Part shown: one piece after another, positions 3,120-22,441 of the stretch | Numbering within the stretch: position 1 is the stretch's first letter | How the letters are laid out: every line of letters starts with the position of its first letter | DNA from: a virus | UHGV virus genome: UHGV-1442421 | DNA length: 32,207 nt | Direction: 5' to 3' (one strand) | Program-made: the position numbers and the translations under genes | Notes under the pieces: model-generated | The model's database searches: none | The model's input: only the letters and a program-made list of their open reading frames with translations | Told to the model about the DNA's origin: nothing

Positions 3120-3967
3120 CACTGCTCCGCAATGATTTTGATGGTTGTGGCAGTAAACGCCGCCCCATTTGACTGAATGGTTAACGTGCTGCCATTTGTG
3201 GCAAGAAAGCCGTCTTTATCCACGCTGAAGAACGTAGCTAACAGGATGTTATCGGTTGTTGTCGCTGCATTACGACTGCTGACCAACGTGTCAGGAACAG
3301 AGCCGGAAAAGGTTAGCTGCATTGACCTGTTGGCGGTTCCGCTGGGCCACGTCCCGACGATCGACAGCTTGAAGAACAAGGTTTTGTTCTCGTTGAACAC
3401 AACCATCTTGTTGTTAACAGTGTCGAAGAATGGTGCCAACGAGCCGGATGACGGCGTGAGCGTTTTCAGCAGGCTAACAAGGTTGGTCGGCGCTGTCGGG
3501 ATGGTTACAGATACGCCAGAGTAAACAACCTCTGACTTCTTGCGAGTAGTGGCATACTCCAGAGCATCGATGCGCGTTTCATGGTCTGAAAGCGTGTTTT
3601 GAATGGCGATAACTTCATCAGTCAGATAATCAATATCGTTTTCTGCTGTCGTTAATCGTGAATCAAGGCCGACTATCGCCGCTTCTGCGTTAGTGATCCT
3701 TGTTTCGTGGTCCTGTATCTTCGCTTCAGCCGATGCCAGTCGAATTTCGTGATCGACCAGAATCACATCCTGCTCATCGTTCCTGACTTGTGCGTCATAA
3801 GCGCCCTGTCCGGCCTCGTTGGCCTTGTTCGCCACGTTACCAACATCAGTGCCCTGTGCGATAACGTAAAGCAGATACGACTGCGAGAAGATATTGCGTG
3901 GAAGAACTGATGTGTCGAGTCGTGTAGCTTGGATGATTACCGGCACATTGAGATTCGAATCCGCCAT
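3119..3967 (-). CDS. Tail needle protein (P22 gp26 / Sf6 gp9 type) with C-terminal knob extension (282 aa)
   Basis: N-terminal heptad coiled-coil region (repeated HETRI motifs), then a ~130 aa Ser/Thr-rich C-terminal domain; position between gp10 and gp14. Confidence 0.7.
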
Positions 3968-5385
3968 TACTCAATCCTTATCTGGCAGCCAGACAGAGTG
4001 ACAGGTGACTTCGTGATAACGCGCAATTTGAAGCCAACATTTTTCCTGATTCGCCCGACACGCTTCCACAAAACGCGTTTGTCGTAAACGAACGGTTCAT
4101 TCTGCTCAATCATCTGCTCACGCCCGTAATTGATGCCGTCAGTGGTTGCAGAGAGAAAAAGGCGGTCGGCGTACTGCGCAACTCCAGTTGACGACTCAAC
4201 CTCAAGGTCGAAAACTCTGGCGTTATCTGCTTTGAACAACGGAGTAAACAACAGGTGTTCCTGTTGCTTGTCGTACTGGCTGCTGATATCGAATTGCAAT
4301 TTCCCGGTCACGGACTCCAGCTTATCGCCGCACGTTATCTTATTGCCTTCGTAAATGAAGTCGATAGCGCGGTACACATCGTCATACAGGCCTGTTTTCA
4401 GCACACACCATTGCGGACCATTGGCGCTTGAAGATGCGTCGTACACGAGGACGTGGCGCGGCAGGTGGATAATCAGCAACTCATGAGCATCAAAGCGCAA
4501 CGATTCCATCACGCCATCAGCCAGTTCATCAGCAGTGTAGGAGCGGAGGATTTTCTCAATGCTCGCGCTGGCGATTGGTGACACCTGACCGGAGCCGATG
4601 ATGTATACAGACGGCGCACCTGTTGCCGGATTGCTGATGAACGCATAAGAATCAGCGAATGGCGTTTTGCAGTAAGTCCCGGCAATGCCTTTCTGCACCA
4701 TCAGTGATGGCTGTGCGACATACAAAGCAGCACCAACAGTTGTTGCGCCAGTCAGGGAGAAATATTCAATCGTCGATGAACCAAAGCAGACGATGAAGTC
4801 TCGCCATGTTCCGATGCCGATGATGCCGTCAGGCTGAGACTCAGCACGATATTGTGCGCTGTAGCGGTCAGGATGCGATTCGTCTTCAAGGTCAGTGATA
4901 AACCATGAATCAGTGCCGTCTTTTGACCACGCATAACGCCCACGTAAGCGCGTAATGTCACGGACCGAACCTAATTCATACTGCGTGAATCCGCTGTCTG
5001 TAGGCCAGTTTGAGACGGTTTTAACCGTGCCATCATAGCGATACTCGACCAGTTGACCATTAACGCCTACCGCCTGTGATGTTCGACCATGCGCCATTGA
5101 TACGCGACCACTTCCGGAAACATCACCGACTTCACTTTCTCCTTTGTAGAGCTTGCCACCACACACGCGATAAACAGCACTCTGCGCCATGTTGTACTCG
5201 ACTCCGCGCGATACACCGTTCACATCAGAACGTTTGGCAATGCCCGGGAATGAGCGAAGATATCCGCTGCTGCTCAGGATTTCTTTGGGTGTAGCCAACA
5301 TATTCACTGGCAGATAGTCTATATAGTCGGCGTTTCGAAAGTCTTTGCCGACACCTTTCATAAGCGGAAGTTGCTGAATCGGCAT
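3967..5385 (-). CDS. Tail accessory / head completion protein, P22 gp10-like (472 aa)
   Basis: ORF track; same length as P22 gp10; start overlaps gp4 stop; gene order. Confidence 0.8.
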
Positions 5386-5885
5386 TATTCGCTCCCGTTA
5401 TCGCAAGGTTCCTTTCGGTGGAAGTAATTCCAACCGTTCCACTTCGCCAACTTGTTACCGCTACCAACAGGCATACGGTTTGGATAACCGGACTTACATT
5501 TAGCGGCTTTTGCTCTGTCCATTGCAGACAGTTTGACGAGTCGCTCTTTCCCGTATCTGGCAGTGGTTATAAGTTTTGCAGACGCTTCCAGCGCATAATC
5601 CGGAGCAATGCGGCAGGCAAGGTTGAAAATGACGGCATTGATAGCGTTATTTGATAAACCGTGTTCATCGCCAGGATCTGGAGCGACATCTGCATCAGCG
5701 AAAATGTAGCCAACGTTGATACCAGGTGACGCATCACCGCCAAGCCATTCAGCCATCATCATTTCAAGGTCGTTGACGCCGTCTTCCATAGACTGCGGTT
5801 CGACATCGGTTAACGTGGCATTTGATGCCACACCGAGCTTACGTAATGCCGCAAGAACTAAATCACCCTTCGTTGTCAGGTTCAT
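5385..5885 (-). CDS. Tail accessory protein, P22 gp4-like (166 aa from ATG at 5885)
   Basis: ORF track frame 5385..5966; internal ATG at 5885 gives P22 gp4 length; the upstream extension runs into the hexamer repeat. Confidence 0.65.
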
Positions 5886-6105
5886 CTGCTGCCGCCTTAG
5901 GTTTTCTACCAGGCTTTTTACGCTGTTTTTCTTCTGGCTCTGGCTCTGGCTCTGGCTCTGCAACATCCTTCAGAAGATCATCAGGATGTGCAAACCAGCC
6001 AGCATCCAGATATTCCTGAAGCTCTTCGGCTTTCACGATTTCAAAGTCGTATCCAACGCCTTTCCATTTCTTCATGTCGCCATGACGAAAGATCATGTGT
6101 GTCAT
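5863..6105 (-). CDS. Small hypothetical protein (80 aa) with internal (Glu-Pro)n repeat and basic C-terminus
   Basis: ATG at 6105 with SD GGAGA; the longer ORF-track version (to 6285) overlaps the coat gene and is rejected. Confidence 0.45.
5933..5960. repeat. Tandem hexanucleotide repeat (TCTGGC) x about 4.7
   Basis: Read directly: tctggc tctggc tctggc tctggc tctg; encodes EPEPEPEP on the minus strand. Confidence 0.85.
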
Positions 6106-6148
6106 GCTTGTCTCCAGATAAAAAGGGAGCCGAAGCTCCCTCTGGTTA

Positions 6149-7444
6149 TCACGCGGTCTGATTAGGCAGACCAACACCAATTGCCTCTGGCCGTACAGCA
6201 CATGCTGAATACCACACAGCAATACGGCACTTACCAGACAGAGTGTTGATATCACCCTGCGTTGCGAAGATGCCGTTAACACCAATACCAGGAATGCTGA
6301 AGGAAGACGTTTTCATGCCAGCAAACAGTTCATGGGTTACCGGGATCGGCTGAGACAGCAGACGGATTGAGTCATCAGCCCAGAACACGTTAGCGGTGGT
6401 TGTTGCCACGTTCAGAACGTTTACCGGAGTGGTATCAGCAAGAGAGGTGTTTACGTTAGCGTAAGCCTTCTCTTCTTTTGTCAGTGAAGCGTCATCAAGC
6501 GCAATCGGCTTCGGCGTGATTTCGATGTGAGTACCATCGATCACACGGGTGATTGAGAAAGTCGCATCATCAGTCAGCACGTTCTTCGCCATCTGAGACA
6601 GGAATTTCACACCAGTGAAGCTGATTTTGTCGCCGCGCTTAAACCCGGTGGTGGAGGATACGGTCACCGTTGCAACACGGTTGTCGACGTTCTCTTTGTT
6701 ACCATCGGTATCAAGGGTGTATGCCTGCGGCTTAAACTTCTGCGCACCAGAAACAGTTACACCAGTAGCGGTTGACTTGGTAACTGCCGGAAGTTTCGGT
6801 GAGCGAAGAATTTCATCAAAGCCAGCAATCTGACGCTGAATAGTACCGTTGCGATACGCTTCTTCAGGAACGCGCCCGAAGATGTCACCATCTACCAGGT
6901 TGCGGCCTGCTTTGCGGTAATCGTCAGGGTTCAGGAAGTAACTGATGCCCATATCGCGGTTTAGCTCACGGGAGAACATCAGGCGCTCTGCATCAGACAC
7001 AAAATCCCAGCCAGACAGGCCAGTAGATGGACCAATTGCGCGGGTATCGTGAACAACAAGCGAGCCCATTTCAGTTGCCTGTTTGGCAATCGCTGACTCA
7101 ATGTTATTCGCCAGTTTTTTGGCGGATGCCTGGATGCGGCGACGGTAAGAACGCTCATCACGCAGGTCATCTGCACGAAGCTCGAAGAAATCGTTATCCG
7201 GATCGCCCATGTTGCATTTCACGGAGAGTTCCAGAATCCCGGTTGCATTGCCAGTTAAATCCCAGCCAGTCTGGGTTGGCGCTTCCTGCTCAACAGGCAT
7301 CCACACGGTGTTGCTTGAACGTTGCATGGATTCTGCCGGAGGGGTGTATTTTGTCACTTTGGACGCCATTGGCGTCAGGTTCTGGACGGTTTCGATGATT
7401 TCATCCAGAGCATACGTGACCAGTTGACCTTCATTTAATGCCAT
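6149..7444 (-). CDS. Major capsid (coat) protein, P22 gp5-like (431 aa)
   Basis: Translation recognised as P22 coat (e.g. [21 protein letters not shown]-terminal GVGLPNQTA); gene order. Confidence 0.9.
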
Positions 7445-10534: not shown

Positions 10535-12034
10535 TTAAGTTCTCCGTGCGATGGGCCTGATTGGGGCTGGTATCTTTTTCTCTTTTGGTTTTTTGATGTC
10601 GCGCATCATTTTTGCGAAGCGGCGCATCATGTATGCATAGCGAACGGCTGAGAGAACGTCGTCGTTAAGCTTGACGATTTTCCCGTTTTCATCACGGTGA
10701 TAGAGGCGGAACTCCTCAAAGAATGGCTCACAGGTGTTGAATACTTTGAAGCGACCATCGAGCATCATGTCGCGCAATTCAGTGATGCCAGGCTCCACAG
10801 CATTACCGCCATCAGGCCATGTCGCATGCTCCTGCAACATCATAAATCCAGCGTCTGCATACTGCCCTTTGAGCTGCTCACCACCGCCCTTCTCATGCTG
10901 GTTTCCGTCATGAGGCCATGCGGTTGGCACTTTATGCGCCCATGATTTAACAGCTCCCCACGCCTGAACGGCTGTCTTTTCTTTCGCCTTCCACACGCGT
11001 GAAACGTAGATTGTGTCTGCGTCCTTATCCCACCAAAGCTGAACCTGAGCCTGTGGGTGATCCCATCCGAAATCCATCCCGCCAATCACGTAGAAGTGAT
11101 CAGGGCACTCGAACGGCTGACACTTAATAGTCTCTTCCGGTATCTGGAAGATTCGACCGCTACCCATCGTAGGAATACCGCGAGCACGCGCCTCTCTCTC
11201 ATGCTCTGGATAGGATGCGATGATTTGCTCTTTCTGCTCGTCGGTATAGTGCTCAGCGTCATAGATGGTCATGTTGACCACTTTCTGCGACTTGCTGGGA
11301 TTCTTCAGGAACTTGGTAACAACGTCAGACATCCCCATCAGCGGGGTAAACGTCAGAATTGAGAATTGCCCGTATTTGTTGGTACGGGTAAGCCCTTCGC
11401 CATAAATGCTGTATGGTGGCTCTTCGTCAAACCACACGCCATGGATTGTGTCACCCTGCCAGCGAGCGCGGCCTTGCGAGTATGGTTTGAAGTAGCAGAT
11501 TGAAATGCCATCTTCAACGCCATCAGCCGTGTGATGCTTAACCAGAAGATGATCAACAAGGTTCGGAAAGAAAGGAGACTTCTTCCAGCTAATGATGTCT
11601 TCTTTCGGTATGGAACCGTAGCCAGGCTCATCATTCTCTTCGATACGACCGCACAGGATGCGTTGAGTCGTTTTGGTTACCGTCTCGTTTGTCTCGCCGC
11701 CAATCCAGAAGACAACAGGCTCATAGAAACGCTTACCTTTCCACTCACCGCCATATTTACCATCAGCCGGATAGCCTTTTGTTCCCGGATAACGTCCGGT
11801 AAGGTGAAACGCGACTTCAGCAGCACCAGTAAATGACTTACCAAGCTGGTTACCAGCCATAAAACAGCGCTCTGGATAGTCATGCCCGGCGTCGATGAAC
11901 TCACGCTGTTTGCTGTATGGCGTAAATTCATATAGCAGGTGTGTGTTCCGGTAGTTCTCTTCTTCTTCGAGTAGCTCGAGCAATTCGATTTGCTCTTCGT
12001 CGCTCAGGTTATCAAGAATCGCGTCCAGTTCCAC
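10535..12034 (-). CDS. Terminase large subunit, P22 gp2-like (499 aa; GTG start)
   Basis: ORF track; GTG at 12034 with SD AAGGAG about 10 nt upstream; size and position; overlaps small-subunit end by 23 nt. Confidence 0.85.
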
Positions 12035-18166: not shown

Positions 18167-19003
18167 TCAGGTTGAACATTCGCAAGGTAATGCGTCGTCA
18201 TCGGCAAACATGTCTATTTGCAGAGCTCGCTCAGCAACTGCTTGCTTAGCAATACTCCAGAATTTTCCAGATGGGACGTGTTCATTTGGCTGAATTCCAA
18301 GTCTTTCCATTTCGGCAAATAACCCCTCCCTTTCCTCCAAATAAACTGCGCCAGCTTCATCCTTGTGAATTGCATATCCGATTTCCTCTTCCGCAGCTTT
18401 CGCCTCATTCCAGATGTCTTTACGAAGCACATAAACGCAGTACCAGTGTTGCCATCCTGCCTTTAAACAGCCAATGCAATTTGCGTGCTTAAATCTCGAA
18501 TAAGCCATTGGGCGGTTAATGCCAATTTCTTCCGTAGAGTGGATTGTTCTTTGCGGCCATAGGGCAATCGGATAGTCAGTTTTATAACCTCGTTCAGCCA
18601 TAACACCCACGCGGCGCTGAACTCGATGCATTTCATTTCTGTCAAATCCGTAGTAGTAGATATTTTCCTTTTGGCTATCATTACGCTCCAGCCACAGATC
18701 AAACGGTCCTGTCTTAAGCCTGTTGGTGCATAGAATTTGACCTGATCCAACTTTCCATGCCCTCGCGTCAAGGCAAACAGATATTGGAGTAGCGTCTTTC
18801 CACCTTTCATGGTTGGCATACGTAACATCTATCCCTAAATAACTTGATATCTCATCCTTAAATCTCTTGATGTCCTCGTCTTCTACTGTGCTACTGATGT
18901 CGTGGTTAAGCAGGATGACATTTTCTCTTCCATATTTTCTGACCACCTCTATCGCGACAATTGCCGAGGAGTGGCCTCCGCTATACAAAACTACGTGCTT
19001 CAT
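18167..19003 (-). CDS. PAPS reductase-like / PP-loop ATP pyrophosphatase family protein (278 aa)
   Basis: N-terminal PP-loop-like motif VVLYSGGHSS; ATG at 19003 with GAGGG 7 nt upstream; occupies the ninC position. Confidence 0.7.
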   Translation of the reverse strand: MKHVVLYSGGHSSAIVAIEVVRKYGRENVILLNHDISSTVEDEDIKRFKDEISSYLGIDVTYANHERWKDATPISVCLDARAWKVGSGQILCTNRLKTGPFDLWLERNDSQKENIYYYGFDRNEMHRVQRRVGVMAERGYKTDYPIALWPQRTIHSTEEIGINRPMAYSRFKHANCIGCLKAGWQHWYCVYVLRKDIWNEAKAAEEEIGYAIHKDEAGAVYLEEREGLFAEMERLGIQPNEHVPSGKFWSIAKQAVAERALQIDMFADDDALPCECST

Positions 19004-20237: not shown

Positions 20238-21614
20238 TCATACGTCAGCCCCTTGTGCATATCGTCTGCCACGCGCAGCAGGTGCATTTGATGCTGTGCA
20301 AATCTGTCTGGCTTCATCCTGGTCACATGCAACAAAGTGTCCGTTGCAGAACCGCTGGTAAACCGTACCAAGCGAGCCAAAACGGTTTTTCGTCACGATG
20401 ATTTCAGCAAATGGCGCGGCGCTACTGTTCTCGTCATATACCGCTTCCCGATAGAGCATGATGATTGAGTCTGCGTCCTGTTCAATGCTTCCAGAATCAC
20501 GCAAATCTGCGTTTGTCGGGCGTTTGTTTGGTCGCTTCTCAACATCGCGCGAAAGCTGACTCAGGGAGATAACAGGCGTTTTCAGGTCTTTCGCCATCGC
20601 CTTCAGGCTTCCGGAGATGTGAGCAATTGCGAGGTCGTTGCGGTCTGCTTTCGGCTTCTCAATCAGGCCAAGATAATCCGCCATGATGAGTGACAGGTTT
20701 GGATTTTCCTGTTTGTGCCGTTCTGCGATTGAGCGTATTTCTTCGACCGATAACCGCGAGGCATCGACTACCCATACATCCAAATCTGCAAGCTGACTCA
20801 TGCCGTTAGCAACACGCGCCCAGCCTTCGTCATCCATCGATGCAGGATTTCGCAGCACGCTAACCGACATCCTCCCGGCGTTGGCGATGCTTCGCTCTGC
20901 AATCTGCAATGCGCTCATTTCCATCGAGAAAATCAACACTCCGCGCCGAACGTCAGAACCAGGGATAACGCGGCTTGCAACGCCTTCGGCAATCTTCAGC
21001 GCCAGCTCGGTTTTCCCCATACCAGGACGAGCGGCGATAATCACCAGGTCTTCCGCGTTCATCCCCCCGGTGATAGCGTCAAGTTCTTCGATTCCGGTCT
21101 TCAGGGTATCGGACTCTTCTCCGTTCCTCAGACGCCTGTCAAGCGTGTCAGTGTAGTCAGTAATGATTTCCCCTAACCGTACAGGTTTAACCTCGTCACG
21201 GGGCTTTCTGATGGCTGAAAGACGCTTTACAAGCTCATCCATCGCCTGACTCGATGCGTCGATGGTTCCGCTCTGAATTGGTTCACGCATTTCATCCATG
21301 ATTTCCAGCACCAGACGGCGGTGATAGTTATCCGCGACCATTCTGGCATATCCCTTCAGGTTTGCGGCGCTCGGGCAGTTTTTGCTGGTCATCAGGATTG
21401 ACGTGAAATGCTCCTCTCCGCACGCCTCGGCAACCATCAGCGCGTCGATTAGGTTTCTGTTTCTCGCCTGCTTACGGATAACTTCGAAGGCTTTCCTGTA
21501 GAGCGGAATTGAAAACGCTTCCGGCTCCAGCGTTGCCAGAACGTCACTGGCGGTTGGTGTTAATCCACCAATCAGCAGACCACCGATAACGCTCGCTTCG
21601 ATATCCTGTTTCAT
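20238..21614 (-). CDS. Replicative DNA helicase, DnaB family (P22 gp12-like, 458 aa)
   Basis: Walker [10 protein letters not shown] and DnaB-like C-terminal motifs; ATGA overlap with the O-like gene. Confidence 0.9.
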
Positions 21615-22441
21615 GCAATCCCCCTGTCTGCAAACTTCCCTTCCCGTACTCCCGTTAACGAATCTTCCCTCAGCAGGTAATCAAAATCAGCTGTCCAGCC
21701 CGTGTCGTTGTCTCCGAAGTAAAACGGCTTGGCCTGATGCACAAACGCCCTGACATACGCTCTGAAACCGTCCACGTTTGGCGTTTTCAGTTGCGGGATG
21801 ATTTTCTTCAGGCGACGTTTGCGTTTCTCGTTGACCGCAACAGCGTGCGGCAGTCTGTCGCCGACTTCGGTGTTGTAGGCGTTCAGGAAAGATTCGTAGT
21901 CGATGCGTTCTGCCTTGCGACGTTCAGGTTTAACCTGCCCATCGTCGCCCCCGTTAGGGGGTAAGGGGGTATTTGTATTTATTGTCTTTTGTATATTGTC
22001 TTTTGTGTTTGACTGATTCGGTAAATTGCTTTTTACCGATTTGGTGAAGGTTTGTTTTACCGAATTGGTAAATGTTTTACCGAATCCGTTAACTTTCGTT
22101 TTCCACTCGGAAATGTTTGTATTCATACCAACTTGACGCCCCACCTGAATGAGAACTCCCATTCTGATAAGCTCGTTTTTGGCGGTAGAGCATTTGGTTG
22201 GTGCCATGCCAGTGAGTTCAGCGAACTGTTCGTTTCCGATCCAATCTATTTTTTTGTTGTAACCGTATGTCTTGCGCCACACAGCCATAACAATCAGTAA
22301 CTGATGTAGAGTAAGTCCAGAAAGCATGGCGGCTTCTAACAGTGTGTTTGCAGTCCGAGTGTAGCCATCTTCGAGTTCTGCCACGCGATGCTCCACGACC
22401 TCCAGTTGAGGCCTGTAATCAGCTAACTTAACGACGCCCAT
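21611..22441 (-). CDS. Replication initiator, lambda O N-terminal-domain type (P22 gene 18-like, 276 aa)
   Basis: N-terminus resembles lambda O (LEDGYTR..N.LLEA); central low-complexity region encoded by the iterons; SD AGGAG. Confidence 0.8.
21947..22090. other. Probable origin of replication inside the initiator gene: AT-rich tract plus four iteron copies
   Basis: AT-rich 21969..22010; TTTTACCGAAT-like repeats at 22030, 22054, 22074 and inverted at 22015; palindrome CCCCCGTTAGGGGG at 21947. Confidence 0.55.

Follow-up and report, generated by a model that had tools for sequence, protein, structure and literature searches.

The hexamer array in a small late gene of the prophage described here is very probably a genuine, fast-evolving in-frame tandem repeat: slippage or unequal recombination would add and remove whole units, altering the length of a spacer within the encoded protein, and the resulting variation would be mostly neutral. 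The array lies in a window of 32,207 nucleotides (the whole stretch of DNA that was analysed, UHGV virus genome UHGV-1442421), which is a P22-like (Lederbergvirus-type) prophage. The isolated phages nearest to the window are HZ41, IME10, APC_JM3.2, and Kapi1, at approximately 95% identity over half to two thirds of the query. All virion genes of the window are encoded on the minus strand, and the features discussed below are collected in Table 1.

Table 1. Features at and around the hexamer array, in window coordinates.
Feature	Position	Strand	Basis
gp10	3967-5385		PF11134
gp4 (head-tail adaptor / P22_Tail-4), 166 aa	5385-5885	-	PF11650 E 7e-59, phrog_637
Small late gene, P22 orf69 family (phrog_1175), 80 aa + stop	5863-6105	-	PHROG match, substitution pattern, RefSeq calls in relatives
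C-terminal tail of the small protein, residues 58-80	5866-5934	-	Alignments
Open gp4-frame stretch 5' of the real start, judged non-coding in the gp4 frame	5886-5966	-	Homologue comparison
Perfect hexanucleotide array	5933-5960	-	TRF, sequence, translation, shuffle control
Predicted N-terminal folded domain of the small protein, residues 1-46 (~45 aa)	5968-6105	-	AlphaFold2, hhalign
Shine-Dalgarno GGAG, 6 nt 5' of the small-ORF ATG	6112-6115	-	Sequence
Hairpin GGGAGC-UUCG-GCUCCC then U5, directly 3' of the coat stop codon	6120-6140	-	RNA fold
P22-type coat protein gene, upstream of the small ORF	6149-7444	-	PF11651 E 2.8e-166

For the array, TRF reports a unit of TCTGGC with a period of 6, 4.7 copies, 100% matches, no indels, and a score of 56; as read in the window the sequence is ...ttcTTCTGGCTCTGGCTCTGGCTCTGGCTCTGcaac..., and on the coding minus strand positions 5935-5958 comprise (GAGCCA)4. 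These units are translated as EPEPEPEP, a (Glu-Pro)4 segment at residues 50-57 of the 80-aa ORF. The longest self-match at lag 6 in the window is 22 bases, compared with a maximum of 11 among 200 shuffles, and the array is thus beyond chance. The GAGCCA unit is free of stop codons in all frames. An earlier note had described a TCTGGC motif present about 4.7 times and encoding EPEPEPEP in an 80-aa ORF between coat and gp4; TRF and the direct sequence agree with the former statement, and the translation and the Pfam assignments of the neighboring genes agree with the latter.

The final 23 bases of the small ORF overlap the start of gp4. The hairpin that separates the small ORF from the coat gene has a predicted folding energy of -18.9 kcal/mol (z -3.2) and is kept, with compensatory stem changes (GGGAGC/GCUCCC vs GGGGC/GCCCC), in P22, L, CUS-3, SI8, and the Proteus and Enterobacter relatives. 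The phage L record labels the hairpin a terminator and that of P22 a stem_loop, and it looks like an intrinsic terminator or an mRNA-stabilising stem-loop. A scan for consensus promoters and terminators found no promoter-like sites around the small ORF, and did not report this hairpin either. Other repeats occur elsewhere in the window. TRF also lists two-copy tandem repeats at 18827-18871 and 10601-10642 (periods 23 and 21, 80-82% identity). A cluster of short tandem and direct repeats with 8-, 14-, 7-, and 24-nt periods and TTTTACCGAATTGGTAAA-like units is found at 21956-22077, within an ORF at 21611-22441(-) that matches Phage_rep_O (PF04492) and adjoins a DnaB-like helicase gene; this cluster is probably an iteron-type replication origin, as in the O gene of lambdoid phages.

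The earlier note had also suggested that the in-frame repeat can expand or contract, so that copy number may differ between isolates, and had proposed a comparison across related prophages. Such a comparison bears this out, with arrays of 1-33 units that differ in whole 6-base steps even where the flanks are identical. Among the window and six aligned phages, whose flanks are 92-96% identical and gap-free except for a 1-nt difference in a T-run, there are two units in Bas106, four in the window, five in Louie and HZ41, six in Dewey, and eight in APC_JM3.2 and IME10 (the three records of which represent one genome). Two scans of IMG/VR contigs yielded arrays of 2-14 units, all of them common, and these contigs, taken together with those from phage records and with three long alleles of E. 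coli, provide 110 distinct sequence contexts. Matches were found in 217 of 5,426 complete E. coli genomes, 173 of them full-length. The 88 listed full-length E. coli records fall into at least 23 length classes, equivalent to 1-33 units with a mode of 4, where copy numbers other than 1, 24, 29, and 33 are inferred from match length. Those four were read directly: a single unit in E. coli 0H24, (GAGCCA)24 in GPEC1446 (with flanks 100% identical to those of the window), (GAGCCA)29 in ECONIH6, and (GAGCCA)33 in 98195, where the protein reaches 138 aa. The arrays of 24, 29, and 33 units are perfect and uninterrupted. Copy-number changes are always multiples of 6 bases; 79 of the 88 lengths are 0 modulo 6, and the remainder reflect a T-run in the tail of the intergenic hairpin that differs by 1 nt. 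In all alleles examined both the small ORF and gp4 stay in frame. A phase-variable contingency locus, in which frameshifts switch a gene on and off, was considered as a separate possibility and is out, as the 6-nt unit is divisible by 3 and the frames are kept.

Copy number also varies on otherwise identical backgrounds. Of 82 flank haplotypes (150 nt identical per side), 15 have more than one copy number, with examples including 5/8/11/13/24 and 2/7/9/12 units. Among six pairs whose flanks are identical over 2.8 kb (1.4 kb per side), two differ in copy number, and a pair with one flank difference has six vs three units. Change in the array is therefore no rarer than change at any base in approximately 3 kb. 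Sets of clonal isolates are equal in length (EC556/571/581; AHM8C212RI/160RI; E50/E67/E57/E20), which indicates that the locus is stable on outbreak timescales, on the scale of weeks. Taken together, every property by which a coding tandem repeat of variable copy number can be recognized in sequence is found here. Two further observations concern individual E. coli genomes. Strain 0H24 has this P22-like locus both on the chromosome (NZ_CP081774.1) and on a circular record, L195 (NZ_CP081778.1, 'plasmid unnamed4', 39,448 bp), which resembles a phage genome, excised or episomal, that was assembled as a plasmid; both copies are apparently one-unit alleles, with match lengths of 383 and 384 bases. 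Two additional length variants of the small protein, P0145 (93 aa) and P0174 (96 aa), are also encoded in E. coli; one of this pair has a 13-aa internal duplication (DAGWFSHPDDLLK twice) and the other an ES-interrupted array, (EP)5 ES (EP)3 ES (EP)2.

Family alignments reveal a three-part plan comprising an N-terminal domain, a variable linker, and a basic Lys/Arg/Pro stretch with a short acidic end. The N-terminal domain follows the pattern M..M[IVL][FY][RK].G...W.G......V...E....L..GW..HP.D. AlphaFold2, run with a 21-sequence alignment, predicts strands at residues 2-8 and 19-25 and a helix at 26-34 (block pLDDT 82/60/88/86), while pLDDT lies below 55 from residue 48 onward, with no confident structure to the end of the protein. 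In this model (EP)n is most likely a disordered acidic spacer between the folded N-terminal domain and the Lys/Pro-rich tail. The tail consists of a Lys/Arg/Pro-rich, AT-hook-like segment followed by the acidic end, whose coding sequence also carries the start and ribosome-binding site of gp4. This acidic end (..D.NEG and the stop) is the other-frame reading of the conserved gp4 start M..TKGD, and is probably constrained by gp4 and not by the small protein.

P22, CUS-3/Sf101, and some Proteus phages have either no linker or a non-repetitive one. Members of the group from Escherichia, Klebsiella, and Enterobacter carry (EP)n here, and Proteus/Providencia orthologues carry (PE)1-5, where the DNA is the same hexamer, (CCAGAG)n, again in varying number. 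Thus the same hexamer occupies the same place in Escherichia, Enterobacter, and Proteus/Providencia members whose N-terminal domains are only about 40% identical. A long form of the gene also exists, in which a WDGH domain (PF25311, E 1.5e-39) is inserted after the N-terminal module to give a protein of 186-203 aa. Long-form loci include L090 (E. coli SJC33, NZ_CP080255.1, 790-1410), L191 (SI8), and L194 (phage L orf186). The E. coli long form ends with the same (EP)n array and tail as the short form, and the lengths of its matches range from 746 to 770 in steps of 6, indicating that the array varies there too. RefSeq flags some long-form copies as partial pseudogenes, although L090 has an intact ORF. 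The short and long E. coli forms become homologous at TTGCA, immediately ahead of the array, which thus also marks where mosaic segments meet.

Searches with the 80-aa protein returned no matches in Pfam (E <= 0.01) or NCBIfam, and in PHROGs only families without an assigned function. An HMMER scan of 1.84 billion representatives gave 24 matches, comprising family members and repeat-containing GIY-YIG-type proteins. Residues ~12-45 match a module repeated four to six times in the C-terminal parts of GIY-YIG/NUMOD3 proteins (phmmer, E 5e-7 to 9e-4), with GIY-YIG and NUMOD3 confirmed in P0130. The module common to both, ...V..(D/E)ELQ.YLD.GW..., aligns in hhalign with 96.3% probability (E 1.6e-9) over 19 columns. 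An HMM of this module had no matches among PDB sequences, and Foldseek found nothing with E below 2 in the PDB and only uncharacterised small phage proteins among viral models. The tail of the window protein, KKPGRKPK, lacks the R-G-R-P core and has no Pfam match; a distant homologue, P0133, carries KRRGRPPK, which matches Pfam AT_hook at E 0.047 and 14 bits, below the 17.4-bit cutoff. From the fixed gene position beside the head-completion genes, the motif common to homing-endonuclease-like repeats, and the AT-hook-like tail, one might tentatively guess that the small protein contacts nucleic acid and assists, dispensably, in packaging of DNA or completion of the head; the profile match behind this guess spans 19 columns, and the AT-hook resemblance is below threshold. 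Of 22 proteins detected by mass spectrometry in phage L virions, 13 are named in the paper. Literature searches covering the gene, phage EP repeats, the DNA repeat, and E. coli MLVA loci turned up no account of the locus or its function.

Slippage or unequal recombination is the most likely mechanism of array change, as judged from the pattern of the alleles. Unit number would shift through slipped-strand mispairing during replication, through unequal recombination, or both. With a unit of 6 bases the small ORF is never broken and the gp4 start is never shifted, and the sole effect of a change in unit number would be to lengthen or shorten a disordered spacer, acidic and stiffened by proline, that separates the protein's two ends. 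That anything from 1 to 33 units is tolerated speaks for a spacer and against a structured element, and most of the length variation is probably neutral or nearly so. The signature of slippage is evident in several respects: only whole units are gained or lost, the longest arrays are perfectly pure, and variant units have spread along arrays, as in (GAACCA)10 of L078, (GAGTCA)4(GAGCCA)2 of L060, and the alternating GAGCCA/GAGCAA of L081. In one Providencia-type orthologue the array has been homogenised to (CAAGAG)5, encoding QE.

The persistence of the hexamer across genera is not obviously what a purely neutral repeat would show, and the repeat state itself may be selected. A stronger proposal, that length variation is adaptive and that (EP)n is kept as an evolvable 'ruler' or contingency-type locus with different lengths, or different quantities of acidic rod, favoured according to host or defence, is unlikely, although likelier than the other alternatives. 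It would fit the presence of a GAGCCA/CCAGAG array at the same position across Escherichia, Enterobacter, and Proteus/Providencia despite roughly 40% N-terminal identity and a different tail, the retention of the array where the WDGH domain is inserted upstream, and the very wide allele spectrum with its pure long arrays. However, members without the repeat (P22, CUS-3/Sf101, and some Proteus phages) indicate that the family can do without it, frequent slippage by itself accounts for both purity and breadth, and no selective agent can be named. Somewhat more doubtful still is the specific version in which (Glu-Pro)n is a selected, rapidly tunable element of a small late protein, acting as a packaging tether or as a poly-acidic nucleic-acid mimic. 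If true, the protein might be a capsid/neck-DNA tether of adjustable length in packaging or head completion, or present an acidic rod against host factors, and changes in copy number would serve as a device for evolvability, encoded by the phage and kept throughout the enterobacterial P22-like group.

By homology and substitution pattern the 80-aa ORF is a real gene, belonging to the P22 orf69 family (phrog_1175). Residues 1-78 align with profile positions 1-72 of 72 at E 2.7e-37, P22 orf69 (NP_059631) matches the same profile at E 4.5e-31, and the two proteins are 35% identical (BLASTP E 3e-10). Over the first 147 nt of 42 distinct alleles, synonymous and non-synonymous changes number 22:11 in the ORF frame, compared with 3:31 and 5:25 in the other frames, and 22 of 32 variable sites fall at codon position 3 in the small-ORF frame only. 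The order coat, small ORF, gp4 is constant down to 35-43% identity in every relative examined, namely P22, CUS-3, Sf101, Salmonella SI8 and L, Proteus V3, Enterobacter, Providencia-type contigs, and two metagenomic contigs at 43-53% identity; the stem-loop after the coat stop precedes the small gene in each of them. GGAG or GAGG stands 5-7 nt before the ATG in most divergent relatives, including CUS-3, SI8, Proteus, Enterobacter, and P22, with GGGGG at this position in L198. RefSeq annotation calls the small gene in E. coli genomes. The earlier note would have given way before a single copy number everywhere and an ORF showing no signs of expression; what was found is varying copy number together with purifying selection, a Shine-Dalgarno sequence, and a conserved position.

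It is very improbable that the ORF is instead a leader or coupling ORF that feeds ribosomes to gp4 past the coat terminator, with no functional protein product and the repeat as neutral filler. Its stop codon does lie 11-23 nt inside gp4 in every member, overlapping the gp4 start as coupling would have it, and variation in the tail region (two synonymous and six non-synonymous changes) does not clearly favour any frame. Against this, the N-terminal domain is under purifying selection and conserved from P22 to Proteus phages, folds confidently in the model, and accepts an inserted WDGH domain, and conservation of the peptide is unexpected from a mere coupling ORF.

The repeat can also be read in the gp4 frame, which is open through the array, GAGCCA being stop-free in every frame, back to an ATG at 5966. 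The earlier note had read SQSQSQSQ here in an N-terminal extension of gp4. The open frame stands, while the extension does not, its start not being conserved; by comparison with homologues the SQSQ reading is an accident of the repeat. That gp4 truly starts at this ATG, and that the array belongs to it as an N-terminal (Ser-Gln)n extension, is a proposal with barely any standing. GAGTCA variant units are synonymous in the SQ frame, and the GenBank/RefSeq records of Louie, Dewey, and IME10 (L001, L003, L005) annotate a long gp4 of 195-201 aa beginning MLQSQSQ..., with the small gene omitted or swapped for an unrelated short ORF overlapping the coat 3' end. However, Pfam P22_Tail-4 (PF11650) aligns from residue 2 of the short form, which RefSeq annotation calls and whose start is also used in P22, CUS-3, L, SI8, and Proteus V3. 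P22 gp4 has no in-frame upstream start, and an in-frame upstream ATG is likewise absent in seven loci: CUS-3, SI8, L, Proteus V3, the two metagenomic relatives (L196, L198), and the WDGH-type E. coli locus L090, which nonetheless has the same array. In five close relatives (L017, L020, L057, L058, L076) a GAT->GAC substitution, synonymous for the small ORF, removes this ATG. AAGG precedes the short start by 9 nt, whereas at the long start AAGGA abuts the ATG with a spacer of 0. The long gp4 in the Louie, Dewey, and IME10 records thus appears to be an annotation error caused by a repeat that is open in all frames. Least credible of all is that errors of sequencing or assembly at a low-complexity site account for the differences in copy number: repeats can be collapsed or wrongly sized in short-read assemblies, and IMG/VR, mostly drafts, reaches 14 copies vs 33 in complete genomes, but arrays of 2-14 units (12-84 nt) are well within read length, the differences are exact multiples of 6 with intact flanks and distinct internal variant units per allele, and independent clonal isolates are equal in length while individually sequenced isolated phages vary.

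The locus is of use in several ways. It provides a simple, highly polymorphic marker (at least 23 length alleles) for P22-like prophages, which are represented in ~4% of complete E. coli genomes, and it corrects a recurrent annotation error in which an SQ-extended gp4 swallows the small gene. It also places a constraint on the orf69-family protein, which would consist of two functional ends and, between them, a spacer of largely unimportant length. Should length prove important, this would be a rare tunable repeat in a protein of the phage morphogenesis region.

Among known systems the closest is P22 orf69, which resembles the window gene in family, in its position between gene 5 and gene 4, and in its stem-loop, N-terminal domain, basic tail, and overlap with gene 4, but its linker, SKLLPVEADDV, is short and non-repetitive at the place taken by (EP)4 in the window. 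The orf186 of phages L and ST64T (phrog_3769), listed for phage L as 'function unknown' (PMC8022706), shares the locus, N-terminal module, and basic tail of the window gene. Unlike the window gene it has a WDGH domain of ~100 aa (PF25311) between the N-terminal module and the linker, and these Salmonella WDGH-form genes lack the EP repeat, in contrast to the E. coli versions with a variable (GAGCCA)n.

Alternating Glu-Pro is found in other proteins as well. The proline-rich spacer of TonB consists of (Glu-Pro)n followed by (Lys-Pro)m, and is extended, fairly rigid, and can be altered in length. The window protein likewise has alternating Glu-Pro and then a Lys/Pro-rich basic stretch, a likeness of physical behaviour only; unlike TonB it lacks a membrane anchor, a hydrophobic segment, and the TonB C-terminal domain, and is predicted to be cytoplasmic at 80 aa. 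With neither anchor nor C-terminal domain, and no Pfam match at E <= 0.01, it does not belong to the TonB family. The EP procyclins of Trypanosoma brucei (Pfam Trypan_PARP) also contain variable-length (Glu-Pro)n and give a weak match (E 0.05, far below the cutoff), but these are eukaryotic surface glycoproteins unrelated to the phage protein, and the similarity is compositional only.

As a class, coding VNTRs share with this locus a short in-frame unit, differences between near-identical genomes, and a slippage-type pattern, and 6-bp repeats are included among the MLVA typing loci of E. coli and Salmonella. To our knowledge the window locus has not been described before as a VNTR, and the GenBank record of APC_JM3.2 alone marks a repeat_region at this array. 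A precedent among P22-like phages is provided by orf232, in which phages L and ST64T differ by a 15-bp repeat (PMC8022706); this VNTR and the window array are both in-frame differences in repeat number. The locus is thus of an already known sort, a coding VNTR, and what goes beyond the routine is the range of its alleles, from 1 to 33 units, and the recurrence of the same hexamer across genera.
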